This document shows positions 8,932-40,103 of a DNA stretch of 48,115 bases, in pieces. The stretch is from positions 1-48,115 of IMG/VR virus record IMGVR_UViG_3300045988_165611; one strand, 5' to 3'. Every line of letters begins with the position of its first letter. Within the stretch, counting starts at the first letter, position 1. The notes beneath the pieces were generated by a model. That model was given only the letters and a program-made list of their open reading frames with translations. It did no database searches and had not been told where the DNA came from. Source of the stretch: a virus. The position numbers and the translations under genes are program-made.

Positions 8932-8941
8932 GGAGAACAAG

Positions 8942-9652
8942 ATGGCATTAACTTTCGGCGGCTCTCAAGTCATTCTTCCCAGCGGATTCTCCGGCTTGGG
9001 CACAGGAGGCACGGCGCTCCCGTTCGGTGGCTCCATGGTCACGATGTCGCCTGAGACGCTACAGGCTTGGGGGCTGAGTGCGCCGGGCACAACAGCCGTT
9101 GCAGGCGGCGGCAGTGCAGGTTCCGGCGGAGCAAGCGGAGGCATGCTCGGCAACATCGGTATTGGAGCCTCTATCGGCCAGGCTATCGGTGCGGCTGTCG
9201 GAGCGTTTATTAACGCCAAGGCAACAAGCTACGTACTTGAAAAACAGGCGGAGATAAACCGCATTAACCAAGGGCGTATGCAGTTAGGCTACGAGAGTGC
9301 CTTGCGCGCAGGCGAGTCTCAGATATCCAAGGTGACACGAGAGGCCGGGGCAATCAAGGCAAAGCAACGCACCGCGATGGCGGCCAACGGTGTGTCTCTC
9401 GGTCAGGGTTCGGCGGCCGAAGTTGCGGCCTCGACAGAAGTGAACAAGAAGCTTGACGTGAAGAACATCCAGGCGAACGCCTTGGCCAACTCGTGGGGCT
9501 ACTCCACACAGGCCGCACAGTACGGCATGCAAGCAAATATGCAAGTGATGGGCGCAGGCTATCAAAACGACACGGCAATTTCCCAAACAATTTCTTCTGG
9601 CTTGGAAGCTATCGGCACGGTTGCTGACCGCTGGTACTACTACAACAGGTGA
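8942..9652 (+). CDS. Internal virion / ejection protein (small)
   Basis: 236 aa with a Gly-rich N-half and an A/Q-rich helical C-half. First of three consecutive genes of increasing size after the tail hub. Confidence 0.5.
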   Translation: MALTFGGSQVILPSGFSGLGTGGTALPFGGSMVTMSPETLQAWGLSAPGTTAVAGGGSAGSGGASGGMLGNIGIGASIGQAIGAAVGAFINAKATSYVLEKQAEINRINQGRMQLGYESALRAGESQISKVTREAGAIKAKQRTAMAANGVSLGQGSAAEVAASTEVNKKLDVKNIQANALANSWGYSTQAAQYGMQANMQVMGAGYQNDTAISQTISSGLEAIGTVADRWYYYNR

Positions 9653-9655
9653 TAT

Positions 9656-12200: not shown

Positions 12201-15200
12201 ATGGACATGACGATTAGTGCCGGAGATAACTTTGCGACCTCCTTAGACCCGAATGCTCGTCCCAAGGAAGAGGTGCCGCCCATTGGCCCCACACCTGTTA
12301 CGTCCTCAGCTCGCTATAACTATACGCAGTCTGTTGCTTCGGGAAAGACTCCCGAGCAAGCGGCCGCCGACTCCAAGCTCGGAGCAGCCATCGGGGTCAG
12401 CCCCGAAGTCCTCGCCGGCATGGACGCCCAGGGGCGTGCCGAACAGCAGGCCAAGACGATTAATTGGGACAAGATGCAACAGGAAAGTCCTGTCCTCTTG
12501 CAGATGATGAACGATCCTACGTTCGCTGCCGAAGTCAGTTCCGACCCTCGTGAGGCAGGCCTGTGGGAGCGCCTTTGGTGGAAACTTGCCCCCGCTCCGA
12601 ATCGGCAAAGCGCACGCAACACGTATGCTAGAGGAGGATATGGACTTCTTAACTCCTTACCGATTTTCGGCAATAGCGCTGTTCTGGAAGATTGCCGTGC
12701 AGAGTTACAAAGCATGGACGATGCGACGCAGGCCCTGAAAGCCGGCAAGACAGTTGCCGAAGTGTTCGGCTCGGAAGAAGACCCCACGGGCGAGGGCGCC
12801 TATGCTCGCTTTGTCTCTCATGGTGAAACACGCAAGAAAGAGATTATGCAGCGCATGGCCAAGGCAGCAACTTCCATGGCGTGGGCCAATAACATGCGTA
12901 ACCTCTTTCCGTACTTTTATGAGACGCAAGCCCTCTTCCAAGCAGACACTGCCAAGGAAGCGTTCGGCATTTTTGCAAAGTACCCGTTGGCTATTGCGTG
13001 GGACTTAAGTGTTGAGAACCTTGTGCAACAGTCTCCGCAGTTGGCGGCGCTTGCCGTAGGTGCGGCAGCAGGCGGTACAGGCGCGGCGGCGCTCGGTCAA
13101 GGACTCGTCTCGTACAACATGGAGTTCGGGTCACGCATGGCCGATGCCATGACCGAGCATGGTTTAAACCCCAACGATGCCAAGGACATCCTGCGCTGGT
13201 ACGGCTCCAATGAGTTTAAGCAGCAGTTCGAGAAAGAGCGTGCCAAGGTGCGCGATGCGGCCGCAGCCGTTGCCGCATGGGACGCGGCCGCAGGCGGGCT
13301 TGTCACGAAGACTCTTGTCCCTAAAGGCTTTATGGGCATGGGGGAGCGTGCATCGAAGATTGGCAACGTGGGCGTGCAGTCGCTTCTGCAAGGCGCAATG
13401 GGCGGCGCAGGCGAGGCGTCGGCACAGTACGTGACTGAGGGCAAAATCACAAGCTGGCCTGATATCGTGGCTGAAGTTGCAGCCGAGTTCTCCACAGGGC
13501 CGGTGGATGTGGCTGCCGCTGCATTCGGCCGTACTACCGAAACGCGCGCCAAGGCAGCCTTGGCGCAAAAGTTCGCACAGCACACAGCGCAATTGGAGCA
13601 GTACGCCAAGGTTTCTCCCTTACTGGCCAATGACCCGGAAACCGCCGCTGAGTACGTCAAGAACATCAAGGCACAAACACAGTTACCGGATTTGTACGTC
13701 GATGTGCAGTCGCTCCACCAAAGTGGCCAAGATGACTTGATTTCCGGTGCATCACCCGAGTTAGCCGAGCGTTACCAGCAAGCGCTTCTTAAGGGCGAAT
13801 CGATGAAGGTATCGCCTGAAGAATTACTCACGGTTCTCGCACCCAGGGACACGAACAATGCCTTGGCGGAAGTCGTGCATCCTGAAGGCATGCCCTCTTT
13901 AGTGGAGGCGCAAAGCCTTGAGCAAACGGCCGCGCAGGAAACATCGGAGCGCTTAGCGCAGACGCTTGAAGGCGTCACGGGCGACTTTGCCACAAGTTCT
14001 GCCAATGTCGGCAAGCAAGTCGAGACGATGCTCAATGAAGCCTATGGCGAGAATACGGATGTTAAGACGGGAGGCATGTCTAAGAGCGCACGGCAGATTA
14101 TGACGACGTATCTGCAGACGCTGTTTTCCACAGTGGCTAAGGACCTTGGTGTTTTGCCCGAGCAGGTGTTTGCCGAGTACGGACCTAAGTCGGTGCTGAC
14201 GCCCGCGGATGCGACACATACAGCAGACGGCAAGCTACAGATAACGTCCGATAGGGCGAAGCAGTTGTTCACCAAGAGTACGAATTCATCGTACGCTATG
14301 ACAATCGGGGATAGGCTTCAAAATCAATTTGCCAAGCCTTCGAAGAGCGTTTCGGAGCAAGAATTAAGTGCGAGTATTCGCCAGGGGCATAACGGTCCGA
14401 AAAGGAGCCTGCGTGACTTTATTCGCAAGACGCTGTCGACAATTGGGGAAGCGGTGCCCGAAAACGAAAGGATTAGCAAGGGTGATTTTGAACGACGCCT
14501 TAAGAATGAAAAACTCGGTTACATCCACATCTCGCCGCGGTCTGCAAGAGAGCTCAGTGGTGAAGTTGCTCTGTACGCAGACGAAATGAAGGCGTTGGTA
14601 TATCTGGAGGATGTGCTCAAAAGCGGCGATTTTAGCGGCTGGAAACCGAACACGAAGACAGATAAAAAACCAAATGTTGTGGGCTATGGGGTGCTTAGCA
14701 AGCTTGCAAGGATTGACGGGAGAGTTTGCTGTATTGATGCGACTATCGAAAAATACAAAGACGGCAAGCTTTTCTATTATCTAAGAATGAAAAAGCTACC
14801 GTCGAAGGTAGCTTCTTCGTCCTTCAAACAAGGGGACCAGCACTCGCGCTTCGCACATCTAGCGCCCTCACTGGAGAACCCCATAGAAGGACTCAGCTCG
14901 AATAGTACACTTTCCGTATCATATGTGCAAGGCACCATCGGCGAATGGTTCCCGGAAGTCCGCGCCATTGCCACTTGGACAGGTGCCAATCGCTCGACGT
15001 TCTTGCACGAGACGGGGCATATGTTCCTGGATATGCGCACCAAAATTGCCGTGAAACTTAAGGCAAAGAAGGACTCTGGCGTAGAACTCACTAAGGGCGA
15101 ACAGCACTTGCTCGATTCCCTTGAAGCGACTATGAAGTGGCTCGGTACTGACCTTGATTCCTTCTCCAAGATGAGCGTCGATCAGCAACGTCCGATGCAC

Positions 15201-18200
15201 GAGAAATTCGCGCGCACGTACGAGGCGTACATCATGGAAGGGAACGCTCCGAGTTCGGCTTTAACGAAGATCTTCCGGTCGTTCTCTGCATGGCTCCGCG
15301 GTGTGTACCGCCTGGTTTCCAACATTCCTGAAGCGGAAATCAATCCCGAAGTCCGAGAGCTTTTCGACACGCTACTCGTCTCGTCATCCGAGGTGGAGAC
15401 AGCCCGTTTGCGCCGTGCGCAGTTCGAGCGCTACAACGATCCGCAGGTAGCCGCCATTGCCCAAGAGATGGGAGAAGACTTCGCAGGCCTCGTGCAAGAA
15501 AGCTCCGAGACTGCCGTGGACGATTTACAGCAGCGCTTGCAGAAAGCAAGTCGGCGTATCGCAAAAATGCGCCAGGGCAAAGTCGAGGAATTGACCGACG
15601 AAGCGCAGCGCATCTACAACGAGATTGTCGACCGCATCTGGCAGGAAGTCATGGCTTCGCCTGAGTACCGGGCGTACGTGGCCCTTACAGAAGGCATTAA
15701 CGGCATTAAGCCCAAACTTACAAAGAAGGACTTGGAAAGCGTCGAGCCGAAACTTACATCGGCGCAAATCAAGATGCTTGAAGATGCCGAGATGGTCGGT
15801 ACGAACCCCAAGGGGGTGAGCGCCAAGATGGTGGCCGAGAAGTACGGCTACGATTCGGTCAACGCCTTGGTGTTTGCTCTGCTAAAGCTCGGAGACCCTA
15901 CGCAACACGTATTCGATTTGGCCACAACCGAGATGCTGGAGCAACACGCAGAGCTCGCTTCCCCCGAATCCATCGAGCAAGCAGCCGATGCGGCCATCTT
16001 CAACGATGCGCGTCTGCGCATTCTCTCCATCGAGGCCATGGCCTTTAACCGTGCTCTCGGGAAGAAAGGCGACGTGCTGACGCAAATCCGAGAAGGTGCA
16101 AAAACAGCCGTCGGCCAAATACATTTGGCGGATATGTCTAAGGAACATGCCCGGCATGCAACCGAAGCCGCACGTAACGCCCGTGAATCGGAAGCGGCAC
16201 GAAGCAAGGGCGACATTAAAAACGCAGCGGCGGCCAAGATTCGTGAACTCTACCAGGCGGCACTCGTGCGGGTTATCACGGTTCGCCGTCGGGAGATCGG
16301 ACAGGCTCTTAAATTCTTTAAAAAGTTCAAGGGCGTCACGACGCTAAAGACGTGCGACACGCAGTACCTGATGGCGATTCAGCACGTCCTAGATAAAGTC
16401 GGTATCGCCAAGTTCCCCGATGCCGGAGCGAACCAACGTCAGTCTTTGGCTGCATTCTTGGACGACCTTAATACGGCGGCTTCTCTTGAAGATGCCGAAG
16501 TCAAGGGCATCGACATTGATTCGGACTTCGTTGCGAAAATCGATGCCGGAGAACTCACGCTCGACCGTATGACAGCGGACCAATTCGAAGTCCTCAATGG
16601 GCTTGTTCACGAGCTTTACACGCTCGGCCGCAACGTAGCGAGCATTGAGGTCGAAGGGCAGCGTGTTGCCTTGGAGGAGGCTCGTGCAGACTTAGCCGAG
16701 GGCATCGAGGAGCACGCAAGCCAGCGCGGCAAAAAGCCCTTGGATAACTACGAGAAAACCGGAAGGCTGACGCAAATTAAAGAACAGTTACATCGAATCG
16801 GACTCTCGCATCGCCGCATTCCGTCGCTCTTTAACTGCATGGAAGGCGTTATGCCCGGGTACGGGCGGTTCTTCAAATACATCACACGTAAGTTTGATGA
16901 ATGCGGAAATCGAGAAACTGCACTAAAGAACGAGATTACGAAAGCGCTGTTCGAGGCCTTGGAGCCGATGTTCAAAGACTTGGCCAAAACAAAGCCGCGC
17001 TTCTACGGAAGTCTCGGGCTGAGCTTTACCAAACAACAGATTTTCGTCATGGCCCTTAACATGGGTAACGAGGGCAATATCCAACGCTTGGTCGATAACT
17101 CCAACGGCTGGAGTTTCATGAAAGGCAAGAAACTCACACAAGCCGATGTCTTGAGCCTTATCCAACAGACGTTGACGGCCGATGAGCTTAACCGTGTTCA
17201 AGCAGTTTGGGATTTGTTCGCTACCTTGCAAAAGGAAGTCGAGGCCAAAGAAATCCGCATGCGCGGAAGAGCTCCTGCATGGGTAACTCCGCAACCGATT
17301 ACCATGGCGTCCGTCGACGGTAAGGTCGTGCAGCTGAAAGGCGGGTACTACCCAATCGTCTATGACCGCCTGGCAAGCTCAAGAGGGCAGGCTATCGACG
17401 CCTCCAAGGGGGTCCTCCAGGAGCTCAAAGGCGTACAGGGCCATGCCTCCACATGGAAAGGGCACCTCAAGGACCGTGCTAAAAAAGTCGATATGAGCAC
17501 ACCGTTAACGCTCACGCTTCGCGGTGCGTTCGAAGGCTTTGAGAACACAATCCACGACGTGTGTTGGGACGAGTGGGTGACAGATACTCGGCGACTCTTC
17601 GGACGCAACAGCACGCTCGATAATGCTATCCGCGAATACTACGGCGCGGACACTGTCGCGGCCATTCGCCAATGGATTAAAGATACGGCGGTCGGTAAAA
17701 GCAACCAGGGGCGCATGGAAGATGGCATTGCGACGATGCTCCGCAAGAACATCTCACTTGTCGGTATCGGCTTTAACTTGGTAACGGCCGCTATCCAAAC
17801 GGTCGGCATCACGCAGACGGTCGTGGCCCTCGGTGGCAAGTGGACCTTATCGGGTCTCGGAGATCTCGTGACTAAAGGCCCGATGGGCTCGTACAAGTTT
17901 GCTGCCTCCAAGAGCCTTCTTATCCAAGATCGTATCCGCACGCAATTCCGCGAAGTGGCCGAGATTCAACGCTACACGGCAAGCGGCGGCAATAAGCTTT
18001 ATGACGGCTTCGCTCGTATGGCCTACATGCCGGTCGCCATGGTGCAGATGCTTGTTGACTTACCGACCTGGATGGGTGCGTACAACAAGGCCTTAGCTGA
18101 AGGCAAGGCCGAAGCCGAAGCGGTGGCCATGGCGGACCGTATGCTCATCGAGGCGCAAGGCTCGGGTCGCTACCAAGACTTATCAGGTGTAGAGCGCGGC

Positions 18201-18779
18201 AATGCATGGGTACAACTTGCTACCGTGTTCTACACGTTCTTCAATACCACATACAACCTTGCTCGTTTGACGATGGAAACCAAGGGCACGCTTGCGGCAG
18301 CTCGTGACTTGATGCTTCTTCTCGTAGCTCAGCCGGTTATCGAAACGTTCGTTCGGGAAGCTCTGAAGGTGCAACCGCCTGACGACGATGATGATGCATA
18401 TTGGGACCGGATGCAGAACGCCATGCTCACAAACACAATCAGTTTCAACATGAGCCTTTTCGTCGGTTTACGTGAGCTTGCATCGGCAATTGACTTTGTC
18501 TCGGACACGCCTGTGTTTAACTACCAAGGGCCGACAGGATTCAAAAAGATTAACGATACCGGCAGATTGGTCAAGACGGTCATGAAGGAATGGAACAAGG
18601 AAAGCGGTGAGGAAATCGACCCTGCCTTCATCCGTCAGTCCATCACGGTGTTTACTGAATGGGCAGGCGTTCCGATTCCTGTTGTGCCGGTCAATCGCTA
18701 CCTGCGCGGCAAGCAGGCTATTGACGAGGGAGATACGACAGATTGGAAGGCCTACCTCTTCGGATACTCGAAACGCTAA
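12201..18779 (+). CDS. Giant internal virion / ejection protein (2192 aa) with zincin HExxH motif; polyvalent-protein-like
   Basis: One uninterrupted 6.6-kb ORF. HETGH lies at nt 15006-15020 (aa 936-940). A visibly AT-richer segment lies around 14280-14900. Confidence 0.7.
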   Translation: MDMTISAGDNFATSLDPNARPKEEVPPIGPTPVTSSARYNYTQSVASGKTPEQAAADSKLGAAIGVSPEVLAGMDAQGRAEQQAKTINWDKMQQESPVLLQMMNDPTFAAEVSSDPREAGLWERLWWKLAPAPNRQSARNTYARGGYGLLNSLPIFGNSAVLEDCRAELQSMDDATQALKAGKTVAEVFGSEEDPTGEGAYARFVSHGETRKKEIMQRMAKAATSMAWANNMRNLFPYFYETQALFQADTAKEAFGIFAKYPLAIAWDLSVENLVQQSPQLAALAVGAAAGGTGAAALGQGLVSYNMEFGSRMADAMTEHGLNPNDAKDILRWYGSNEFKQQFEKERAKVRDAAAAVAAWDAAAGGLVTKTLVPKGFMGMGERASKIGNVGVQSLLQGAMGGAGEASAQYVTEGKITSWPDIVAEVAAEFSTGPVDVAAAAFGRTTETRAKAALAQKFAQHTAQLEQYAKVSPLLANDPETAAEYVKNIKAQTQLPDLYVDVQSLHQSGQDDLISGASPELAERYQQALLKGESMKVSPEELLTVLAPRDTNNALAEVVHPEGMPSLVEAQSLEQTAAQETSERLAQTLEGVTGDFATSSANVGKQVETMLNEAYGENTDVKTGGMSKSARQIMTTYLQTLFSTVAKDLGVLPEQVFAEYGPKSVLTPADATHTADGKLQITSDRAKQLFTKSTNSSYAMTIGDRLQNQFAKPSKSVSEQELSASIRQGHNGPKRSLRDFIRKTLSTIGEAVPENERISKGDFERRLKNEKLGYIHISPRSARELSGEVALYADEMKALVYLEDVLKSGDFSGWKPNTKTDKKPNVVGYGVLSKLARIDGRVCCIDATIEKYKDGKLFYYLRMKKLPSKVASSSFKQGDQHSRFAHLAPSLENPIEGLSSNSTLSVSYVQGTIGEWFPEVRAIATWTGANRSTFLHETGHMFLDMRTKIAVKLKAKKDSGVELTKGEQHLLDSLEATMKWLGTDLDSFSKMSVDQQRPMHEKFARTYEAYIMEGNAPSSALTKIFRSFSAWLRGVYRLVSNIPEAEINPEVRELFDTLLVSSSEVETARLRRAQFERYNDPQVAAIAQEMGEDFAGLVQESSETAVDDLQQRLQKASRRIAKMRQGKVEELTDEAQRIYNEIVDRIWQEVMASPEYRAYVALTEGINGIKPKLTKKDLESVEPKLTSAQIKMLEDAEMVGTNPKGVSAKMVAEKYGYDSVNALVFALLKLGDPTQHVFDLATTEMLEQHAELASPESIEQAADAAIFNDARLRILSIEAMAFNRALGKKGDVLTQIREGAKTAVGQIHLADMSKEHARHATEAARNARESEAARSKGDIKNAAAAKIRELYQAALVRVITVRRREIGQALKFFKKFKGVTTLKTCDTQYLMAIQHVLDKVGIAKFPDAGANQRQSLAAFLDDLNTAASLEDAEVKGIDIDSDFVAKIDAGELTLDRMTADQFEVLNGLVHELYTLGRNVASIEVEGQRVALEEARADLAEGIEEHASQRGKKPLDNYEKTGRLTQIKEQLHRIGLSHRRIPSLFNCMEGVMPGYGRFFKYITRKFDECGNRETALKNEITKALFEALEPMFKDLAKTKPRFYGSLGLSFTKQQIFVMALNMGNEGNIQRLVDNSNGWSFMKGKKLTQADVLSLIQQTLTADELNRVQAVWDLFATLQKEVEAKEIRMRGRAPAWVTPQPITMASVDGKVVQLKGGYYPIVYDRLASSRGQAIDASKGVLQELKGVQGHASTWKGHLKDRAKKVDMSTPLTLTLRGAFEGFENTIHDVCWDEWVTDTRRLFGRNSTLDNAIREYYGADTVAAIRQWIKDTAVGKSNQGRMEDGIATMLRKNISLVGIGFNLVTAAIQTVGITQTVVALGGKWTLSGLGDLVTKGPMGSYKFAASKSLLIQDRIRTQFREVAEIQRYTASGGNKLYDGFARMAYMPVAMVQMLVDLPTWMGAYNKALAEGKAEAEAVAMADRMLIEAQGSGRYQDLSGVERGNAWVQLATVFYTFFNTTYNLARLTMETKGTLAAARDLMLLLVAQPVIETFVREALKVQPPDDDDDAYWDRMQNAMLTNTISFNMSLFVGLRELASAIDFVSDTPVFNYQGPTGFKKINDTGRLVKTVMKEWNKESGEEIDPAFIRQSITVFTEWAGVPIPVVPVNRYLRGKQAIDEGDTTDWKAYLFGYSKR

Positions 18780-23208: not shown

Positions 23209-24285
23209 ATGGCATTCCCGAAACTACTACAAAAACTTTTCCAGAACAATGGAGCGGGGGACAAACTCAATCCCGACATCATCCCCGAGATGAATTACCT
23301 ACCGACAAGCGGTGGTACGGTTAACGGCTCGGTAACAATCAATGGTACAACTATCCCCGCTTCCGGCAATATTGGGGCTTATAAAGAAGGCATCAAGTTC
23401 GGTTGGGGTTCGGAGATTTCTCAATCAACACCCAGCGGTTTGAACCTTTGGGCGAAGAAAGGTGATTCGAACACTGTTCTTGCCCTGTACGCAGAAGCGA
23501 AAGGGAATGACAACGGCAATACGCCGGGAATCTACCTGCGTGCAGGGAACGGCACGGCCACAAAGGGTTTGCGCCTCACAACGAGTGCCGCAACAATTGA
23601 TGGGGTAGAAATTGCAACATTGAATACCGCCTCAAGAAATCTTGGGCATACGACGATGGTTGGCCTAGGTTTTGCGAAGGACTCAACAGTTACCCTAGTG
23701 CAATTTTTTCAAAAACTCGCCGAGCATGGATATTCCGAGTTCAACTCTGTATTAAAAATTGATTATTTATACGCAAACTCGGCTTACGTCACAGATGGAA
23801 CAAACACCGTCAAGATTGCCGGTGGCACGCTCTATTTGGGGCAAAATACACACAATCCTTCCAATGATTATGGTGTTGCTTGGGGGTTTTTTGTGCCGTC
23901 AGAGGGAACTAAACTATATCGATTCAGAACATATAAAGACAATTCGCAAGCAACATCAGACTCGCCCCAGCAGAGTATCTACCCGTATGAGTCGGGGGGT
24001 GGCCTCTCCGTCGTCGCCGAGTCCTACAGCGCTAACTCCTGGTACCGCAAATACTCCGACGGATGGATTGAGCAGGGGGGAAAGACCACGGGGAGTAGTG
24101 GGTTTACACTAACGTTCCCGCTCGCATTCAGCAACACAAACTACTCGTTTGTTTGCAACACACAAGGGAACTCCACGGGCTACGGCTACAAGCGTTCTGC
24201 TTGGATTAGCTCACGAACAGCAACGACGGTTACTCTCGGCTCAGACGCAGGCGACCCTGCTATATGGTATGCCTGCGGAAAGTAA
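23209..24285 (+). CDS. Tail fibre / receptor-binding protein with exchangeable C-terminus
   Basis: 358 aa. The conserved fibre motif SWYRKYSDGWIEQGG lies inside the 56-bp inverted repeat. Confidence 0.75.
   Translation: MAFPKLLQKLFQNNGAGDKLNPDIIPEMNYLPTSGGTVNGSVTINGTTIPASGNIGAYKEGIKFGWGSEISQSTPSGLNLWAKKGDSNTVLALYAEAKGNDNGNTPGIYLRAGNGTATKGLRLTTSAATIDGVEIATLNTASRNLGHTTMVGLGFAKDSTVTLVQFFQKLAEHGYSEFNSVLKIDYLYANSAYVTDGTNTVKIAGGTLYLGQNTHNPSNDYGVAWGFFVPSEGTKLYRFRTYKDNSQATSDSPQQSIYPYESGGGLSVVAESYSANSWYRKYSDGWIEQGGKTTGSSGFTLTFPLAFSNTNYSFVCNTQGNSTGYGYKRSAWISSRTATTVTLGSDAGDPAIWYACGK
24025..24080. repeat. Inverted repeat, left arm (56 bp, perfect)
   Basis: TACAGCGCTAACTCCTGGTACCGCAAATACTCCGACGGATGGATTGAGCAGGGGGG is the exact reverse complement of 24557-24612. 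Confidence 0.95.
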
Positions 24286-24612
24286 TTATTTGCCCCAAGC
24301 AACGACAGGGATAGATAAAGTGGCGTTGGCGCTATAGTCTTGTTGCGATACCGAGAAAAGCACCTGTGTTTTATTCACACCTGCAAAGGATACTGTCGCA
24401 TAGTAGGTGCTATCTGAGTCACCCCCTGTGTTATACGAGCCCGTGGCAGATGCCGGACCTCCGATAGCATACCCGTAAACAGCGGTAGAAAAAGGAATTG
24501 CTAGATTAACGCGGTTATTGTTAGATGGCCGCGTAGAGGTAGAGTAGTAAAAAATACCCCCCTGCTCAATCCATCCGTCGGAGTATTTGCGGTACCAGGA
24601 GTTAGCGCTGTA
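24286..24612 (-). other. Silent (start-less) alternative tail-fibre C-terminal cassette
   Basis: The minus-strand frame is open for 108 codons, YSANSWYRKYSDGWIEQGG IFYYSTSTRPSNNN...SIPVVAWGK*. It has no usable start, and its stop at 24286-24288 abuts the stop of the expressed copy. Confidence 0.8.
24557..24612. repeat. Inverted repeat, right arm (56 bp, perfect)
   Basis: Exact reverse complement of 24025-24080. It abuts the stop codon (24613-24615) of the next minus-strand gene. Confidence 0.95.
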
Positions 24613-24936
24613 TCAAAACAACGAATACGCTTCCCATCCGAGCGCGAGGATAAGGAACGCTACACCGAGAATCATTGCGTAAGCGCCCTGGGTATCGTCT
24701 TCCTTGTATCTGAGTATCTCGCAATGGATTCCGTAGAAAAAGACGACGAACGCTGTTGCCAGTGCATTCACCACATTGTCGGGCGTGTCGCTACCTGTAA
24801 ACCACTGCATCAGGTCGCCGAGGAGCGAGGCAACGTGGTAGCAACCTGCCCAGAAAATAAGCAAGAATGTGATGATTGCTAGATAGCCGATATACGTTAG
24901 CTCTTTGGGGTATGACTTCCACATCCATGTGCGCAT
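24613..24936 (-). CDS. Multi-pass membrane protein (107 aa), function unknown
   Basis: Several hydrophobic segments (YLAIITFLLIFWAGCY, ALATAFVVFFYGI, AMILGVAFLILALGW). It has its own 120-nt upstream region and an SD. Confidence 0.6.
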   Translation of the reverse strand: MRTWMWKSYPKELTYIGYLAIITFLLIFWAGCYHVASLLGDLMQWFTGSDTPDNVVNALATAFVVFFYGIHCEILRYKEDDTQGAYAMILGVAFLILALGWEAYSLF

Positions 24937-26819: not shown

Positions 26820-26870
26820 ATGGCTGAATTTGCCTCTAAAGGTGTGGCGGGTACAGGTCTCGGCTTGGGT
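26820..26870 (+). CDS. Exon 1 of the intron-split gene (17 codons: MAEFASKGVAGTGLGLG)
   Basis: SD AAGGAG lies 7 nt upstream. The frame runs into ATG TGA immediately after 26870. Confidence 0.7.
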
Positions 26871-27694
26871 ATGTGACAATGCCCTCTGAATCCTTTTCCT
26901 TAGCGGTTCTAAGGGGTAAAATTAAGTAGTTAAACTACTCTAGGATTGGCTATATGGTTGAAGTTAAGAACGTCATTGGGTACATAGGGCTGTATCTTAT
27001 TGATAGCCTTGGAAATGTAGTATCTCTACCGAAGATTCAAGGTCGTCGGTTACATAACAAGTACAAGATACTCAATACCAAAGTCAATAAGCTTGGCTAT
27101 AAGGAAGTTGCTCTGACGAAAAACGGCAAAACAAAGACTTTGCTTCTGCACCGTTTAATCGCTCAACACTTCGTTCCTAACCCAAACGATTTGCCTTGCG
27201 TGAACCATAAAAATGGCATCAAGGCTGATAACCGTATTGAAAACCTGGAGTGGTGCACGAAAAGCCAAAACACGAAGCATGCTTTTGACAATAATCTAGG
27301 CGGTTTTAAGCTTCGTGCGATTAAAAATCTTGAATCGTGGAACAGATGCCATGCATATCTAAGGATTGTGCTTGAGAAAGATGGAAGAACAATTGAGTTT
27401 TCGTCATCTTTTGATGCCGCTCGCTTCATTGGCGTGACGCAGAGCGACATCACTAGAGCAATAACGAAGCGTCAGTGTTGCCACGGTTACAGAGTGTTTG
27501 GTTTTAAGCTACAAGATTTTGCTAACGGGGAAACCTCTCAGAGGCAATCCCGTGGGAAGCCTGAAAAATCAGGAACCTGTATCGACTATTCCTCGGAAGG
27601 GAAGTAGAGCTGAGTTAACCACAGTTCGAAATGGGATTCGCAGCAAAAGCTGTTAAGAGATAGTCAGTGCCACTGGCGACAGTGGAAGAACATG
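26871..27694 (+). mobile_element. Group-I-like self-splicing intron (824 nt) carrying an HNH homing endonuclease ORF
   Basis: The 5' splice site follows a U in a U.G pair of P1 (GGGU|AU / AUGCCC). The IGS CAAUGCCC (26877-26884) also pairs with exon 2 AUUG. GACUAU (27584-89) pairs with AUAGUC (27660-65), and AAGAGAUAGUCA resembles the group I S element. A GNRA-capped hairpin lies at 27670-27685 and the terminal G is at 27694. Confidence 0.75.
26954..27607 (+). CDS. HNH homing endonuclease (intron-encoded)
   Basis: N-terminus IGYIGLYLIDSLGNVVS is NUMOD4-like. LHRLIAQHF..VNHKNGIKADNRIENLEWCTKSQNTKHA is an HNH motif. Confidence 0.85.
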   Translation: MVEVKNVIGYIGLYLIDSLGNVVSLPKIQGRRLHNKYKILNTKVNKLGYKEVALTKNGKTKTLLLHRLIAQHFVPNPNDLPCVNHKNGIKADNRIENLEWCTKSQNTKHAFDNNLGGFKLRAIKNLESWNRCHAYLRIVLEKDGRTIEFSSSFDAARFIGVTQSDITRAITKRQCCHGYRVFGFKLQDFANGETSQRQSRGKPEKSGTCIDYSSEGK

Positions 27695-28123
27695 ATTGCC
27701 GGAACTGCACTTGCTTTGTTAAATAACGGTGGTTTAGGAGGAATCCTCGGCGGCGGAAATACCAACGCCTACGTGGATTCTTTAAATAGCAAGATTGCCG
27801 AACTCAATGCCGAGAAGTATTCGGATAAGGTCGGAATCGAGGTGTTCAAGGCCGCGCGCGAATCTGACGCGAAAACCAACTCGCGTTTCGAGGAAATCGC
27901 TCGCACAATCGCTGATATGCGTGTCCGCGAAGCGCAGACTGCCGGCAAGATCGACTTGGTGGCCGCCACGGCTACTCAGGGCATTGCTGCGAACTCTGCG
28001 GCGATTACCTGCCTGCAGAACACGGTCGCCGGCATCACGAAGATCGTTGTGCCCAATAGTTCCATCTGTCCTGGGTGGGGGAATGTGACGATTACTCCGG
28101 CCTCTACAACTACTGCTGGCTAA
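27695..28123 (+). CDS. Exon 2 of the intron-split gene (Gly-rich hydrophobic N-region, coiled coil, C-terminal CPGWGNVTITP)
   Basis: In frame with exon 1 after removal of 26871-27694. The track ORF 27692-28123 starts at the ATG formed by the last three intron bases. Confidence 0.7.
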   Translation: MAGTALALLNNGGLGGILGGGNTNAYVDSLNSKIAELNAEKYSDKVGIEVFKAARESDAKTNSRFEEIARTIADMRVREAQTAGKIDLVAATATQGIAANSAAITCLQNTVAGITKIVVPNSSICPGWGNVTITPASTTTAG

Positions 28124-28681: not shown

Positions 28682-28795
28682 ATTAAACCACTTAGGTACG
28701 CAAGTACCGTGCACCAAGCCCCCTTTCTTCAAACCCTGCATTTCCCTGCATATCCTGTTTTTAAAGCCTTTTTCCCTCCCTGTTTTGCGGTAAAC

Positions 28796-28862: not shown

Positions 28863-29894
28863 ATGGCTTCCATTTCCAAAACTCCTTCGGGTACGTACGC
28901 CGTGTCGTACCGCGTGAACGGCAAGCAGACTAAGCGTACCTTCAAAGACAAGAAACTCGCGCTGCGCTTTCGTGACGTAGTGGACATGGACCCGAGCGTT
29001 AAATCGACACGAGTTACCGTGGGTGAGTTGGTGCTTGCCTACCGCGACAAGATGTCTGCCAGGAAGCGTGGCGCTCGCGCTGAAAGCCTGCGCTTGACGG
29101 CCCTGGCGCGCAGGACCTTCGCCTCCATACGTTTGGACAAGGTCACGCACCGAGACCTACAGGCATTCGTCGATGAACGCACGACCGAGGTTGCGCCGGC
29201 AACGGTGGTCAGGGAAGTGGCCACTCTGTCAGCCGTGTTCGCTTGGGCAAAATCACAGGATCTTATTCTCGAAAGTCCGACCAAGGGGCTTGTGCTTCCC
29301 CGTCCTCCCGAGCATCGGGAACGTGTGGCCTCGGACGAAGACATTGAGAAGCTGCTTGCCGCCTCAGGCTGGGACGGCAAGAGTCCGCCTTGCAATAACA
29401 TGCAGACGGTCATCGCTGCATTTCTCTTCTCGTGTCGAACGGGAATGAGAGCCGGCGAGATACTACAGATTGAGGTATCTTGGATAGACGGCTGCGTAAT
29501 TCACCTGCCTGCAAGCGCCACGAAGACGGCCACCAGGCGGGATGTTGCCCTCGGTAAAGATGCCCTGCGTCTTCTTGCCCTGGTAAAGGAAGCCAACGGC
29601 GATGACCTCTTCCAAATGCGCTCGGGCTTACGAGACGCCCTGTTCCGCAAAGTCCGCGACAGGGCAGGGCTAGGGCCCGTACTCGATTCGCACGGCAACG
29701 TTATTAAAGAGGGGCTACACTTCCATGACGGACGCGCGACTTTCGCTACGTGGGCGGCAAGCCCTGACCCCGAGACGGGCGCTCCGCGGCTCGATGTGAT
29801 GGCGCTATCTCGCCAGACGGGCCACAGAGACCTTAAAATGCTCATGCGCTACTACCGCGCTACGGCACAAGAGATTGCGAAACGATTGAAATAA
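28863..29894 (+). CDS. int: Tyrosine recombinase / phage integrase
   Basis: 343 aa with ATRRDVAL (Arg), HDGRATFATW (H-x-x-R) and GHRDLKMLMRYY (His...Tyr). Confidence 0.9.
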   Translation: MASISKTPSGTYAVSYRVNGKQTKRTFKDKKLALRFRDVVDMDPSVKSTRVTVGELVLAYRDKMSARKRGARAESLRLTALARRTFASIRLDKVTHRDLQAFVDERTTEVAPATVVREVATLSAVFAWAKSQDLILESPTKGLVLPRPPEHRERVASDEDIEKLLAASGWDGKSPPCNNMQTVIAAFLFSCRTGMRAGEILQIEVSWIDGCVIHLPASATKTATRRDVALGKDALRLLALVKEANGDDLFQMRSGLRDALFRKVRDRAGLGPVLDSHGNVIKEGLHFHDGRATFATWAASPDPETGAPRLDVMALSRQTGHRDLKMLMRYYRATAQEIAKRLK

Positions 29895-32219: not shown

Positions 32220-32489
32220 TTAAACTAAATCCAGTGGACTTACATCCTCACTATCAATAACAAATACCCGACAACCTGACTTCTCCATCCGGGCGATCTC
32301 CCTCTCTTGGTGCGGGCGAAGCTTCTCACCCGGCGCCTTGAACTCAATCCAATAATGGCGGCCATTGGCCATCACGAAGCGGTCAGGCGCCCCACGCCTG
32401 CCTTCCCAGGCGCACTTGCGCACATCTAGGCCAAGCGCTTTGCACCGCGCTAGGAACTTATTAATCACACGACCCTCGGGCGTTGTCAT
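32220..32489 (-). CDS. VRR-NUC domain nuclease
   Basis: GAPDRFVMANGRHYWIEFKAPGEKLRPHQ contains the D...E-x-K core. Confidence 0.75.
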   Translation of the reverse strand: MTTPEGRVINKFLARCKALGLDVRKCAWEGRRGAPDRFVMANGRHYWIEFKAPGEKLRPHQEREIARMEKSGCRVFVIDSEDVSPLDLV

Positions 32490-34568
32490 TTAATCAGCCT
32501 TTTTGTATCGGTTGCCTACAAAGCCGTCTACAGCGAGCGGTAGCCCCCTGTAAACCGTACTTGTAGGCTTAGTCATAACGGATACCAAGAAGTCGTAGGC
32601 CTTTCGGCCGTTGACTTCCGGCACCTCACACACAATCTCGTCGTGCACGTGCATGACAGGACACATGCCTGCTTTCTCCAAGCGCACAAGCGCACCGCAC
32701 AGAAGGTCGCAGCTTGTCGCTTGGACAAGGTTTTCCACGCACTTGGCCCCGTGGGTTTCGAGTCGGCACCATTTGCGCACTTTCTGGTCAATGCCAAGGT
32801 ACGTAAAGGACCCCGATTGCTCGTCATTGATACGCGGCTTGGCGTACACAAGCTTGCGACCAGCAGGAAGGCGCACTGTCAGATACTGGCCGTCGTACTT
32901 GGCCACGATGCCCCGACGCACGGGAAACTCGATGCCGGGGTTCTCGATGGCATTAAGGCAGGCCGTGCCGACTAGGTCCCAGAACTCGGCAATGTGGGGG
33001 TTGGCCAAGCGCCAAGCGCGCTTGACAGCGTCAACAGCCACGAACGTATGCTTGTCTAGGTCGCACGTGCGATTGTTCTTAACGAACCAATCCCACGACT
33101 TGTCGGCTTCGGCCACGAGGACGGGATCGAGGGCGGCGTAAATGTCATCGGCCACAGCCTTCAGATTCATTCCGTATCCGTTGGCGAACGTGACAAATGC
33201 ACCCGCTCCGCCCCCATACCCCAGGGCAAGCTCTAGCACTTTGCCCATTTGCCGTTGCGGCTTCGTCACATCTTCCGGACGAATGCCGAATGTTTTGCCG
33301 TACGTCATCTTGTACAGGTCGTGTCCGTGCCCTGCATCGAAATCTCGGAAAGCCTTAAGCTTCCACTCCTCGCCGGCAAGCCAAGCGAGCACACGGCCTT
33401 CCACGTTGCTCCAGTCAGCCACGACAAAGGTCTTGTCCTCGGGCGCGACGATGAGGCCTCGCAGGCACGTAGAAAGGACAGGGCGCACGTCTTCATAAAA
33501 AGACTCGGCCACTCCTGCCTTGATCAAATCGATAGCCTCGAAGAATCCCGCCTCCTTAAAGGCAGGGCGGGCAAGATTCTGCGGTTGGAAGATGCGCCCG
33601 GCAAAGCGCCCGGTTCGCATCGCACCACGGAATTGGAGTGTGCCGCGCAAGCGCCCGTCCGATGACACGGCATCGAGCACCTTCTCGTACTTCGTGGCAC
33701 TTGTGGCCGCGCTCGCAAGACGCAGGCGCAGCAGATCCTTAACAGGTTCCGGCACATCGTCGGCGTCAATCTTGCGCTCCACCTCGGCCTTGGTCATAGA
33801 CGACAAGCGCCAGCCGTACTGCTTCTCGATGAACTTGAGCATGGCGTCGCGCTGCGTGGCCCGTGTTACCTCTCCGTTCGTTAACTCGGCTGTACGCATA
33901 GCGAGGCCCTCCTTGTGCTCCTTATCAAGGCGCAAGGCCCCCTTGGCCAACTCTTGGTCGATAAGGTACCCACGGCGGTTAATGGCTGCGTCCGTGAGCT
34001 GGATCTCGCGCTCTTCCTTCGTGCAGTTGAACTTCGGGAGGCGCTTGAACACCTCGCGCATGGACACGATGTCCATACGACAATATTCTTTGAATAACTC
34101 CCAATCGGCAGGGCGGTTCTCTTTCGTCGCTCTGCGGTTCTTCCAGTTGGAGGGTAGGGGTTTGCAGAAAAGATTTACAAGCCGTGAGCCGTCGGCCATC
34201 TTCGATTCGCTCTCGGTAAGTCCGAAGACCTTGCACAGGTCCGCAAGCGCACCGGGAAGGCCGTGCTCGTAGGCAATGACCATCGAATCGATGATGCGCT
34301 TGGGGCTCCAGTCGTACTGAGGCAATACGTGTGCGAGCACGACTGAATCGAACTGCATGCCGTTGTGGAACACAAGGCGCGTTGCCTCGTCACGCAAGGC
34401 CTTGTCGAGATCGGCCGGCACAGGCTCGCACGTTGCATCCCACACCTTGGCATGACCATCGGCGAGCGCATAGCCGAAAAGCAAAAGCTCCGCTGTCTCC
34501 GCGTACTTATGTGTGCCGACACTAATCGGTGTCTTGTTAAAAGTTTCGATGTCCGCAAAAACTAACAT
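32490..34568 (-). CDS. Family A DNA polymerase with 3'-5' exonuclease domain
   Basis: Exo I FADIETF, motif A VVADWSNVEGRVLAWLA, motif B RQMGKVLELALGYGGG, motif C VMHVHDEIV. Confidence 0.9.
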   Translation of the reverse strand: MLVFADIETFNKTPISVGTHKYAETAELLLFGYALADGHAKVWDATCEPVPADLDKALRDEATRLVFHNGMQFDSVVLAHVLPQYDWSPKRIIDSMVIAYEHGLPGALADLCKVFGLTESESKMADGSRLVNLFCKPLPSNWKNRRATKENRPADWELFKEYCRMDIVSMREVFKRLPKFNCTKEEREIQLTDAAINRRGYLIDQELAKGALRLDKEHKEGLAMRTAELTNGEVTRATQRDAMLKFIEKQYGWRLSSMTKAEVERKIDADDVPEPVKDLLRLRLASAATSATKYEKVLDAVSSDGRLRGTLQFRGAMRTGRFAGRIFQPQNLARPAFKEAGFFEAIDLIKAGVAESFYEDVRPVLSTCLRGLIVAPEDKTFVVADWSNVEGRVLAWLAGEEWKLKAFRDFDAGHGHDLYKMTYGKTFGIRPEDVTKPQRQMGKVLELALGYGGGAGAFVTFANGYGMNLKAVADDIYAALDPVLVAEADKSWDWFVKNNRTCDLDKHTFVAVDAVKRAWRLANPHIAEFWDLVGTACLNAIENPGIEFPVRRGIVAKYDGQYLTVRLPAGRKLVYAKPRINDEQSGSFTYLGIDQKVRKWCRLETHGAKCVENLVQATSCDLLCGALVRLEKAGMCPVMHVHDEIVCEVPEVNGRKAYDFLVSVMTKPTSTVYRGLPLAVDGFVGNRYKKAD

Positions 34569-34806
34569 TGCTTTTCCTTAAAAATGTCGCGGGGTAACCG
34601 GACGACAGGGACCAGGAAATGACGGCAACGTATACAAGCCAAAACCGGAAACCCTTTAGAACCCGAGGGAATCAACAGAAACCCCGGGCCGCCAGAGAGT
34701 CCACCCAACGATGGACGAGCACTACATCCTCCGGTTCCCCGATAAAGCCTCCGTCGCCAGGGGCTTTACCGGGAAGGCTCCGTCAGGAGCCAACCCGATG
34801 TTCTAC

Positions 34807-35388
34807 TTAACTAAACACATCCAACTCGTCAGCGAAGTCGTCGTTGGCCGCAACCGGCGTGGCTAACGCCTCGAAGTCGTCAGCCGTCGCACGGATTCCG
34901 GAGCCCTCAAACGGTTCACCCTCTTTACGGAAGTGAACCGAAACGAGCTCGAAGGACACGCCTTTTGAGCCGCTTGCGTCGTAGCACCAGGACTGCACGA
35001 CTACGTCGATGTAGTCGCCCGACCGGGGCATATCCGCCTGCGATGTAAGCACCCTCTTTAAGTCAGCCGAGTACACAATCGGGGCACCGTTCTCCTCCCG
35101 GCGCTTTGCATTGATGTACCAGCGTTGGCGGTCGGTATCGTGCTGCAGGCCACGTGTGTTCTTGTTCTCCTTAGCGGCAGCAAAAACACGCTCGGCCTTG
35201 TCACCGAACTTGGCTACAAAAGCCTCTTTCATGCCCGCAGCGACTTTCTGCAAGTTCTCCTTGTCGTCTTCCGCGATCACAATCTGAGCGCTGTAGAACT
35301 TGCGTCCGTCTTGCGAGTAGCGGTTCTCTTGAGCGACCACCAGGCGCGGAAAATTAATCCGCACATTTTTCAAAATAATCTTTGCCAT
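34807..35388 (-). CDS. DUF2815-type phage single-stranded DNA-binding protein
   Basis: 193 aa between the nuclease and polymerase genes. The N-terminus MAKIILKNVRINFPRLV and the acidic tail DDFADELDVFS are SSB-like. Confidence 0.6.
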   Translation of the reverse strand: MAKIILKNVRINFPRLVVAQENRYSQDGRKFYSAQIVIAEDDKENLQKVAAGMKEAFVAKFGDKAERVFAAAKENKNTRGLQHDTDRQRWYINAKRREENGAPIVYSADLKRVLTSQADMPRSGDYIDVVVQSWCYDASGSKGVSFELVSVHFRKEGEPFEGSGIRATADDFEALATPVAANDDFADELDVFS

Positions 35389-35423
35389 AACTAACTTCCT
35401 AGATATAAATTAATCAACGCTTT

Positions 35424-36665
35424 TTAATTCTCAATCGCTTCGAAATCAGCGGAACTTGCCGCCGTAATCGCCGGCCGTTTATCTGACTCCTCTACGACTG
35501 AGGGCTTACCCTCGGACTGCGTAACGCAGTCACGGATTTTTTGCTGCTGTTGGGTACCCAGCAGTTTCGGATTGGCCTTTAAGGCCGCTTCGAATTTGGT
35601 CGGAGAGATGAGCTTGAAGTCGTACATTTCCTCACGCTTCAAACGCATGCTCTTCATGAGTTTTTCCACCTGGGCATCGTCTGCCCACTTGCGCGGTCCC
35701 TTGCGCCCGGCGACTAGCTTGTAGCCGGGAATCTTCTCCCCCTGACCGAGGCGCGCCGTGACGGACTCTCGGACCATCTTGGTAAAGGTCTCCAGAGCAG
35801 GCAGGAGGCTGTAGGCCTTAGCGAGTTTCTCCGGATCGTCCGGCACGCGAATGACCTGCACGGCTTCGGGCTTCGGTTCGTCCGCTTTGTAGTCCACAAG
35901 TGCAGCCGAGGCCGCTTGTTCAGCTAACATCGGGCACTTGGCTTTGCCACGGCACCACCGACAAACGGACTCGTTACAGCAGTAGTCGTCCGGCCCGACC
36001 GTCGGCTTCTCCTTTTCGTTGTAAAAGCGGATTGCCTTCTCAGCACGAGGCCGCACATTTGCCTTAAACGCCTCCAATTGCTCTGGCGTCAGCTCCCACT
36101 GGTTCACACCGCCGGCACGCGGCTGCACGATGGCCAAATGCACGTGCTCGATATCGTCGTAAAGCAGCGAGACCTCATCCCAGAGCGCGGCCGCATAGAT
36201 TGAAAGCTGCTCGTTTCGTTCAGCTGACACGGGCACGCCGGCGCCGTACTTAAGGTCAATCACCCACATGTGGCCGGGGTAGGCTAAAAGGCAGTCAATC
36301 GTGCCCTTTGCACCTTCCTCGGACGTAACCGGCGAAACGTCGACCGGATGCTCGAACGCGATATAAGCACATTCGTCCGCCTTCTTTGCCTCGGCAATTC
36401 GTTCAGCTACGAAGCGCACGTACTCGCCGACGTACTCACCCATTTCCCGGCCGCACTCCTCCGAGAAACGGATATCTTCCGGCATGCAAGGCGCATCCTC
36501 GAACATTTGCCGAAGCGTTCGTTCAGCTAGGGAATGCGCCTTTGTGCCTTCCTCGGCATAGGGTGAGGACGGATTGGGAACGCCCTTTTCAAGCCATGCT
36601 GAGGCCGGGCAACACGCCCAGGTGTGGGCGTGGCTCGGACTTAATATTGCGTGTTTACCCGGCAT
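35424..36665 (-). CDS. PD-(D/E)XK (Cas4/RecB-like, DUF2800-type) exonuclease with Fe-S cysteine cluster
   Basis: GTIDCLL...VIDLKYG is a D...D-x-K core. Has an N-terminal Cys pair (WACCPAS) and a C-terminal CRWCRGKAKC. Confidence 0.75.
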   Translation of the reverse strand: MPGKHAILSPSHAHTWACCPASAWLEKGVPNPSSPYAEEGTKAHSLAERTLRQMFEDAPCMPEDIRFSEECGREMGEYVGEYVRFVAERIAEAKKADECAYIAFEHPVDVSPVTSEEGAKGTIDCLLAYPGHMWVIDLKYGAGVPVSAERNEQLSIYAAALWDEVSLLYDDIEHVHLAIVQPRAGGVNQWELTPEQLEAFKANVRPRAEKAIRFYNEKEKPTVGPDDYCCNESVCRWCRGKAKCPMLAEQAASAALVDYKADEPKPEAVQVIRVPDDPEKLAKAYSLLPALETFTKMVRESVTARLGQGEKIPGYKLVAGRKGPRKWADDAQVEKLMKSMRLKREEMYDFKLISPTKFEAALKANPKLLGTQQQQKIRDCVTQSEGKPSVVEESDKRPAITAASSADFEAIEN

Positions 36666-39851: not shown

Positions 39852-40103
39852 ATGGCAGTCTACAAACTCAAGGCGGTGATGCTGCGCAGGGCGATCGACG
39901 CCCTGGACGCCGGTTTCAGCATCCGAGCCGTGGCCGAGGCTACGGGCATTCCGCTCAGCACGCTACACGCGGCGCAGTCCGGGAAATTGGCTTATCTTTT
40001 TGAGGGGGATGATTATGCTCGATCTTTTCGCGGTAAACCCGGCGACATCCGAGCCGGGCGCGGCCGACAAGCCGGAAACAAAACCCCCGGAGAAACTTCT
40101 TGA
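39852..40103 (+). CDS. Small HTH-like protein (83 aa)
   Basis: LRRAIDALDAGFSIRAVAEATGIPLSTLHAAQSG looks like a helix-turn-helix. First rightward gene after the regulatory region. Confidence 0.45.
   Translation: MAVYKLKAVMLRRAIDALDAGFSIRAVAEATGIPLSTLHAAQSGKLAYLFEGDDYARSFRGKPGDIRAGRGRQAGNKTPGETS

Follow-up and report, generated by a model that had tools for sequence, protein, structure and literature searches.

A putative tail-fibre tip inversion switch in a BPP-1-like gut phage that encodes no dedicated invertase

Known inversion switches and the tail-fibre locus

Phage tail-fibre switches of the Mu G, P1 C, e14 P and p15B Min type are inverted by the serine invertases Gin, Cin, Pin and Min, and to our knowledge all well-studied tail-fibre inversion switches carry an invertase of their own. 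Here we describe a tail-fibre locus in a viral genome of 48,115 nucleotides (nt; IMG/VR record IMGVR_UViG_3300045988_165611, positions 1 to 48,115; this whole stretch is hereafter the window), in which two alternative C-terminal tips, A and B, lie tail to tail between the arms of a perfect inverted repeat. When related contigs are compared, the segment between the arms has evidently changed orientation repeatedly in natural phages, the breakpoints lying within the repeat, and we are highly confident that this is a real switch that flips. The fuller description, a two-state, gene-altering and homology-driven inversion switch in the tail fibre of a temperate BPP-1-like podovirus, is put forward with evenly balanced confidence. 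What is new here is a minimal tail-fibre tip switch that lacks an invertase, appears to use a conserved structural motif as its site and is found in at least two gut phage clades.

The first-pass annotation of this DNA, made from the sequence alone, assigned the locus the architecture of the Mu G and P1 C segments. The functional likeness stands: a constant N-terminal fibre is joined in frame to alternative inverted C-termini, with a presumed alternative host range, and the crossover site falls inside the gene, where constant and variable parts meet. The molecular likeness does not, as this locus has no serine invertase and no gix-type dyad site, and the Fis-dependent enhancer of Gin and Hin normally lies in the invertase gene, which is absent here. 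The segment measures 476 nt, as against ~3 kb in Mu and P1, genes for tail-fibre assembly or a chaperone are absent from it, and relatives differ in the length of their arms (22–59 nt). With invertase, gix-type site and chaperone gene all absent, the locus is therefore not a member of the Mu/P1 family.

Other described systems share different parts of the design. The Rin system of bifidophages and the Rci shufflons of R64 likewise swap C-terminal receptor-binding parts at short asymmetric repeats within genes; unlike them, with their dedicated adjacent tyrosine invertase and several segments, this locus has one segment and exactly two copies of the core, and the sole tyrosine recombinase of the genome is the integrase, which lies 4.2 kb off and is not conserved among carriers. 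The closest published precedent that we found is the "orphan" tail locus of the Bifidobacterium prophages Bb423phi2 and 689b-1, where ~500 bp, spanning a small gene and the 3' terminus of a structural one, are inverted at the 8-bp repeat CAGGGTTA with no flanking recombinase, and for which Mavrich et al. (2018, PMC6109161) suggest that an invertase acts in trans. That locus shares with ours a short repeat, the lack of a flanking recombinase and inversion between related prophages. The likeness is one of description; the bifidobacterial repeat is 8 bp long, in an actinobacterial host and in genes without assigned function, whereas the arms described here are 22–59 nt long, encode a conserved motif and co-vary. 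Inversion without a dedicated recombinase, presumably by general recombination, is also seen or proposed at the pneumococcal hsdS/SpnIII locus, where a systematic survey that also notes some programmed inversions with no recombinase nearby reports that deleting the nearby recombinase does not abolish inversion (PMC9881135), and in cyanophages, for which recombinase-free isomerization of ~30 kb at repeats of 400–700 nt has been proposed (bioRxiv 10.64898/2026.02.14.705889). The repeats in these cases are 85–700 bp long, do not encode a strand of a receptor domain and do not swap a fibre tip. In the literature we found no description of the switch family reported here.

Inversion of the tip segment among related phages

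A repeat search of the window returned the inverted repeat that had first drawn attention to the locus, with 56-nt arms that are 100% complementary and 476 nt apart (Table 1). It is the sole long perfect inverted repeat in the window, the runner-up pairs in a genome-wide scan being 70–81% complementary, and the 23-nt core of the arm occurs in exactly two copies even when three mismatches are allowed (none expected, 100 shuffles). Translation of the minus strand from 24612 to 24286 gives the 19 residues YSANSWYRKYSDGWIEQGG, then 89 differing residues and a stop (24286–24288) that abuts the TAA of the expressed gene (24283–24285). Both the perfect repeat and the start-less minus-strand frame of the first-pass annotation were thus reproduced; the frame has no usable start codon, and its list of open reading frames (ORFs) contains none of at least 40 amino acids (aa).

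Orientation was compared among consensus contigs from different samples. In L001, a more distantly related 48-kb viral contig of clade 1, the 476-nt spacing is the same and the segment is reversed, the fibre ending in tip B (93% identical to the silent copy of the window) with tip A silent. Contigs L053 (ERZ653640) and L058 (ERZ28637877) are collinear in their flanks (97.7% identity over 2324 nt and 99.2% over 2216 nt) around a central 570 nt that is inverted at 99.1%, and the overlaps between these alignments are the repeat. The prophage in the 104.9-kb contig L052 carries the segment of the window inverted, at 95.8% identity and between collinear flanks. When the hypothetical flipped fusion protein was used as a query, the proteins P0001–P0003 matched at 86–91% identity and 100% coverage, and native-orientation relatives (P0006, P0007 and P0009–P0011) were matched as well; tip B is expressed in L001, L052, L053, L061 and P0001–P0003. 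Eight genomes carry the A/B pair, five expressing A and three B, and their segments are 95–99.6% identical once oriented alike. The two states are interspersed on the phylogeny of the flanks of these eight genomes, and L053 (B/A) nests within L058 and L059 (A/B; flanks 96–99%), which requires at least two to three independent flips.

The same convergent layout recurs in a second group of phage contigs with a guanine-plus-cytosine (GC) content of 48% (clade 2), in which the arms are just 22–27 nt long and share the core ATGGGTGGATTGAGCAGGGGGG. Here L008 and L011 differ from L009 and L010 by inversion of a 435-nt segment at 91–93% identity, between collinear flanks of 83–90% and with arms of 22–26 nt. 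Near-identical phages therefore carry both orientations with breakpoints in the repeat, as anticipated from the in-frame repeat, recombination within which was expected to invert 24081–24556 and swap the tip; inverted repeats, both orientations in near-identical genomes and breakpoints in the repeats are also the features by which gene-altering programmed inversion is recognized (PMC9881135). An assembly artefact was considered and rejected: the contigs were built at k 119–141, which exceeds the 56-nt repeat, so that contig orientation is read-supported, and independent samples agree. No close isolated phage was found, neither megablast of the locus nor tblastn of both tips giving a match in INPHARED, and scans of metagenomes and viral sequences with DNA patterns for further junctions yielded only a few additional loci.

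The silent copies could instead be stored or relic tips at a locus where no switch operates, with orientation differences arising as rare accidents or by horizontal exchange of the whole module, and several observations fit such a history. Other tip pairs (D/A, D/B, K/D, C/E, F/H, D'/G and I/J) are found at this junction, with tips A, B and D each found both expressed and silent, so cassette replacement also takes place besides inversion. The repeat-tip-tip-repeat module is 95–99.6% identical, against 74–99% for the flanks, and sits on differing fibre bodies, from which we conclude that it moves horizontally. The ratio of nonsynonymous to synonymous polymorphism (pN/pS) of tip B is 0.77, a weak constraint based on few substitutions, and one silent cassette, type H, has no stop. 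We nevertheless consider this history improbable. At least two to three independent flips have occurred among eight A/B genomes, one flipped pair is only ~1% apart in its flanks, which implies a flipping rate that is high relative to point substitution, and both orientations recur in clade 2. Decay of the inverted cassette in relatives, which the first-pass annotation had said would speak against a switch, was also looked for: all 26 silent cassettes examined are open frames, with only type H lacking its final stop. Tip A is under purifying selection even when silent (pooled pN/pS ~0.20 in 10 genomes, including pairs silent in both), and the arms are kept identical.

In type H (L004 8637–9158, minus strand; L066, plus strand, from 186) the stop after the terminal …VVGK is lost and the frame reads on for ~50 codons antisense to the expressed tip, either as early decay or as a longer variant.

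Two ways in which the silent cassette might be translated where it stands were examined. Separate expression was rejected, as no start codon yields 40 aa or more. Read-through from the 107-aa ORF upstream, whose TGA is in frame with the cassette, would produce a fusion; the junction (TGA at 24613–24615, cassette arm 24557–24612) reads …AYSLF*YSANSWYRK… and recurs in L001, L002, L055, L057, L065 and L066, other lineages having a hairpin or a different gene at that position. The 107-aa ORF has no Pfam or PHROG match, and is replaced by plus-strand genes in clade 2 and in L053, L054 and L058, which still carry the switch. Since the in-frame TGA junction is lineage-specific, read-through is not a general explanation, and such a fusion seems unlikely.

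Tip domains, repeat arms and the mechanism of inversion

The 358-aa tail-fibre protein, encoded by the final gene of the tail module behind a DUF4376 protein, has tail-fibre and virion-protein matches in PHROG, and its residues 282–357 match the Pfam family PF21882 (Gp53-like_C; E 4.9e-7, 30.6 bits, over the curated gathering threshold of 24.9 bits). Silent tip B reaches 19.4 bits against the same family (E 0.0015), which is under the curated cut-off. Searches of the PDB by sequence, with the protein and with a tip profile, gave no useful match, and fold comparison alone worked. AlphaFold models of tips A and B (predicted local distance difference test scores of 88.6 and 82.3, respectively) both find their best PDB matches in the receptor-binding foot domains of R1/R2 pyocin tail fibres, with template modelling (TM) scores of 0.70–0.76 for tip A (E 5e-5, R2-pyocin best) and 0.43–0.49 for tip B (E 0.01). 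The predicted fold of both tips thus matches the foot of R-type pyocin and P2-like fibres (PDB IDs: 6CL6, 6CT8, 6CXB and 6CL5), although sequence identity is 18–24% and pyocin fibres are not inversion-switched. The two tips had been described as diverging completely, and structure prediction of both C-termini had been suggested as a check; given the common Pfam family (matched below the cut-off by tip B) and predicted fold, they are instead homologous, divergent forms of a single receptor-binding domain. Among relatives, nine different tips could be aligned on one framework (WIEQGG, h-x-FP-h-AFS-x-x-x-Y and a terminal C/W-G-K), of which tips A and B share WIEQGG...FPLAFS..Y...CGK, and the repeat encodes the first strand of this domain, which is conserved.

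The same domain is found in other arrangements. Tip B (89–95% identity) occurs on many shorter fibre bodies of 265–343 aa (P0015–P0032), always joined at WIEQGG, which shows horizontal spread of tips across fibre types. Elsewhere (L019 7920–9039, L015 ~7400–10200 and L023 9120–9833), three to six stand-alone small genes lie in tandem on the same strand, each of ~100–140 aa with its own ATG and a short N-terminus ahead of the same tip domain (…WYRKYSDGxIEQGG…); these are an alternative way to carry several tips without inversion.

No enzyme dedicated to the inversion was found. Using Hin and Gin as tblastn queries, no match below an E of 1 was obtained in the window, and with an E cut-off of 1e-3 the 61 related loci (4–21 kb) gave none either. 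Pfam and PHROG scans of essentially all window ORFs of at least 100 aa (9656–12196 and 12201–18779 in the structural module, and ORFs overlapping longer ones, lay outside them) contained no PF00239, and the tyrosine integrase was the only site-specific recombinase. These searches uphold the first-pass annotation, which had listed no Gin/Cin/Hin-type invertase and the integrase as the sole recombinase. No recombinase adjoins the locus in any relative and no neighbouring gene is conserved; in clade 2, Pfam searches of 10 neighbouring ORFs gave no recombinase. A diversity-generating retroelement of the BPP-1 kind was also sought, and the Pfam scans of the window contained no reverse transcriptase.

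The integrase itself might double as the invertase, much as Rci and Rin invert their segments, and it was one of three catalysts that had been proposed, beside a host invertase and homologous recombination. The genome encodes no other site-specific recombinase, integrase-mediated inversion is seen in lambdoid phages (HK022), and a 13-nt stretch of the arm, GGTACCGCAAATAC, resembles GGTACGCAAGTAC at the phage attachment site (attP). This site was placed at ~28690–28716 from the phage/host junction in prophage L052, phage homology ending at 28716, after TTAGGTACGCAAGTACCGTGCACCA. The resemblance is at chance level, an equal or higher score being reached by 1162 of 5000 shuffles and by 317 of 1181 windows of the genome, and GGTACCGCAAATAC falls in a part of the arm that neither the right arm of L052 nor any clade-2 arm contains. 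The arms have no core-type dyad. Carriers of the switch have other integrases or none nearby: that of L054 is P4-type, that of L055 is 64% identical, homologues of the window integrase occur in 4 of the 61 loci, and the flipped pair L053/L058 belongs to the L054-like genome type. With an attP unlike the repeat and different integrases in the carriers, the integrase is unlikely to be the invertase; of the three options offered it is the least likely, and we allow it only a very slim chance.

The arms were then compared as possible recombination sites. Their inner boundary is fixed where the tips diverge, whereas the outer one varies with lineage (56, ~46, ~42, 33, 59 or 22–27 nt) and is the end of the truncated silent copy. 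The best 12+12 dyad in the 56-nt arm pairs 6 of 12 positions, under the 7.0 averaged by shuffles, and hixL or gixL is matched at 11–12 of 26 positions at best. Catalysis by a serine invertase was rejected, there being no enzyme in the window or the 61 loci, no dyad and no likeness to hix or gix. Synonymous positions vary between genomes and are mostly alike in both arms of any one genome; in clade 2, arm identity is 0.972 within genomes compared to 0.886 between them, a difference reached in 3 of 10,000 permutations. Fixed-site strand exchange does not homogenize flanking bases, whereas heteroduplex repair in homologous recombination does. The "ongoing exchange" that had been read from the perfect repeat is supported by this co-variation.

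With no dedicated invertase in the phage, a crossover driven by homology is the likeliest, and this mechanism is better supported than a site-specific one, in our view with confidence at about the midpoint of the scale. According to the homology-driven reading, the constant fibre body, which ends in SWYRKYSDGWIEQGG, would continue into one of two C-terminal foot domains. Because tips A (67 aa) and B (89 aa) stand tail to tail and each opens with the same 56 nt, inverted, a crossover between the arms would invert the segment and fuse the body in frame to the other tip, the first being parked as a start-less silent copy. The outcome would be a changed receptor specificity, and hence probably a changed host strain. 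The crossover "site" would be the nucleotide identity of a structurally conserved motif, and the route could be recombination by host RecA-type functions and/or assisted by phage exonuclease, single-stranded DNA-binding protein (SSB) and resolvase, or strand switching in replication, with heteroduplex repair keeping both arms identical. The recombination and replication genes at 32220–36665 form a toolkit that could support homology-driven inversion, a putative role.

A serious rival, although we rate it less likely than the homology-driven route, is a recombinase that acts in trans, is encoded by a co-resident element or on the host chromosome, and recognizes the core GGNTGGATTGAGCAGGGGGG in the arms; it would account for several of the same observations. 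The core is conserved in two clades of different GC content and arms of 22 nt still mark the breakpoints, while flips occur in phages with PolA/DUF2800, RecT/YqaJ and Erf/YqaJ modules, which a host factor would explain. The master invertase Mpi of Bacteroides is a precedent for such an enzyme. Further precedents are the invertible tail locus (PMC6109161) and the inversions (PMC9881135) that have no recombinase nearby. There is, however, no candidate enzyme and the core has no dyad symmetry; it encodes a conserved protein motif that is present also in fibres without a silent cassette, so its conservation needs no recombinase. Identity of the arms extends to 56–59 nt, beyond any plausible site, and their co-variation within genomes is unlike fixed-site exchange. 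The two clades probably also differ in host, such that the factor would need to be widespread.

Several points weigh against a homology-driven switch. RecA-dependent recombination is efficient from roughly 25–30 bp upward, and the clade-2 arms of 22–27 nt are at or below this length, which a site-specific enzyme would fit better. The 20-nt core GGNTGGATTGARCARGG, conserved in both clades, could be a recognition site as well as a product of coding constraint, and the missing dyad symmetry is not decisive because asymmetric recombinase sites exist, such as sfx of Rci and rix of Rin. Co-variation of the arms in clade 1 is modest (identity of 0.927 within and 0.899 between genomes, 327 of 10,000 permutations) and the compared genomes are not independent, and the weak constraint on tip B belongs here too. 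The invertase search was confined to the window, the 61 loci and, in clade 2, 10 ORFs beside the locus. Finally, the flips are deduced from contigs of different samples, so that switching within a population, and its rate, are putative.

What calls for explanation is that a complete temperate phage genome has no invertase, yet the segment flips repeatedly in two clades with arms down to 22 nt. We tentatively suggest, as a possibility we would not rate highly, that the strand opening the receptor-binding domain, which is structurally conserved, also serves through its nucleotide sequence as the site of recombination, and that many gut phages may carry such a self-contained form of phase variation; two tips of this family, whichever they are, would then make a switch once they stand tail to tail, with no dedicated enzyme. 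If general recombination suffices, host-range bet-hedging by inversion would be much cheaper to evolve than assumed. Should arms of 22–27 nt flip at useful rates, this would point either to a short-homology inversion pathway in phage replication, undescribed for host-range switching, or to an unrecognized trans-acting recombinase whose asymmetric site overlaps a coding motif. Such switches could be widespread yet overlooked by searches that require a nearby recombinase, and they would be silently mis-annotated because gene callers skip the start-less spare tip, making host prediction from one assembled orientation incomplete. With 0.6 kb and two defined pyocin-foot-like tips, the system is small enough to make the flipping of recombinase-less loci directly testable, and it provides a compact basis on which switchable receptor-binding domains could be engineered.

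Feature coordinates and genome context

Table 1. Features of the tail-fibre locus and of the integration and recombination genes, in window coordinates.
Feature	Position	Strand	Evidence
Tail-fibre gene, 358 aa: constant body and expressed tip A	23209–24285	+	ORF, Pfam, PHROG
Left repeat arm, encodes YSANSWYRKYSDGWIEQGG; constant/variable junction, conserved first strand of tip domain	24025–24080	+	Repeat search; all relatives have the junction at this motif
Invertible segment, 476 nt: variable parts of tips A and B, tail to tail	24081–24556	.	Opposite orientation in L001, L052, L053
Tip A variable part, 67 codons and TAA, expressed here	24081–24285	+	ORF, Pfam, model
Start-less silent cassette: right arm and tip B (19 shared and 89 specific codons)	24286–24612	-	Translation
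Right repeat arm	24557–24612	-	Repeat search
107-aa hydrophobic ORF; TGA abuts right arm, in frame; context, outside switch	24613–24936	-	ORF list
Tyrosine integrase; 4.2 kb from locus, beside attP	28863–29894	+	Pfam PF00589, PHROG 1
VRR-NUC/Holliday-junction-resolvase-like endonuclease	32220–32489	-	Pfam/PHROG
DNA polymerase A	32490–34568	-	Pfam/PHROG
Enc34-type SSB	34807–35388	-	Pfam/PHROG
DUF2800 PD-(D/E)XK exonuclease	35424–36665	-	Pfam/PHROG

The ends of the window repeat ~119 nt, which identifies it as a complete circular assembly and bears out its earlier description as a complete genome; the ENA holds a twin contig (sample ERZ27229772). The phage, a podovirus of the human gut, is temperate and BPP-1-like. 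Its Pfam matches PF21190, PF25181 (weak), PF20911 and PF12236 make up a set of Bbp16, Bbp19, GP7 capsid and T7-type head-tail connector proteins, and further genes encode a 2192-aa internal protein, a holin, a lysozyme and a CI-like repressor, besides the integrase. A host in the Sutterellaceae is tentatively suggested by weak sequence matches in contigs of Duodenibacillus metagenome-assembled genomes, among which L049 has the same layout and a 59-nt perfect repeat.

The genomes are strongly mosaic. Relatives carry RecT/YqaJ or Erf/YqaJ in place of the recombination genes of the window, and these two modules and that of PolA, DUF2800 and Enc34-SSB interchange on nearly identical structural and tail-fibre modules (L054 20213–21176, L055 20319–21167 and window 32220–36665, respectively).

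The attP lies just upstream of the integrase gene (window 28690–28716; L052 15720–15748) and contains the perfect small palindrome GGTAC-GCAA-GTACC, and on the host side of the L052 junction are genes for an IclR-family regulator, an M20 peptidase and an amidohydrolase. Positions 26852–27736 of the window, with an HNH/NUMOD4 gene at 26954–27607, are absent from the otherwise collinear L052 prophage (flanks 92–94%) and thus look like a mobile homing-endonuclease insertion. Amid the early genes on the minus strand, a plus-strand ORF at 40000–40998, which overlaps annotated-looking minus-strand ORFs, matches the small-terminase family PHROG 1482 over residues 178–321 (E 1e-13).

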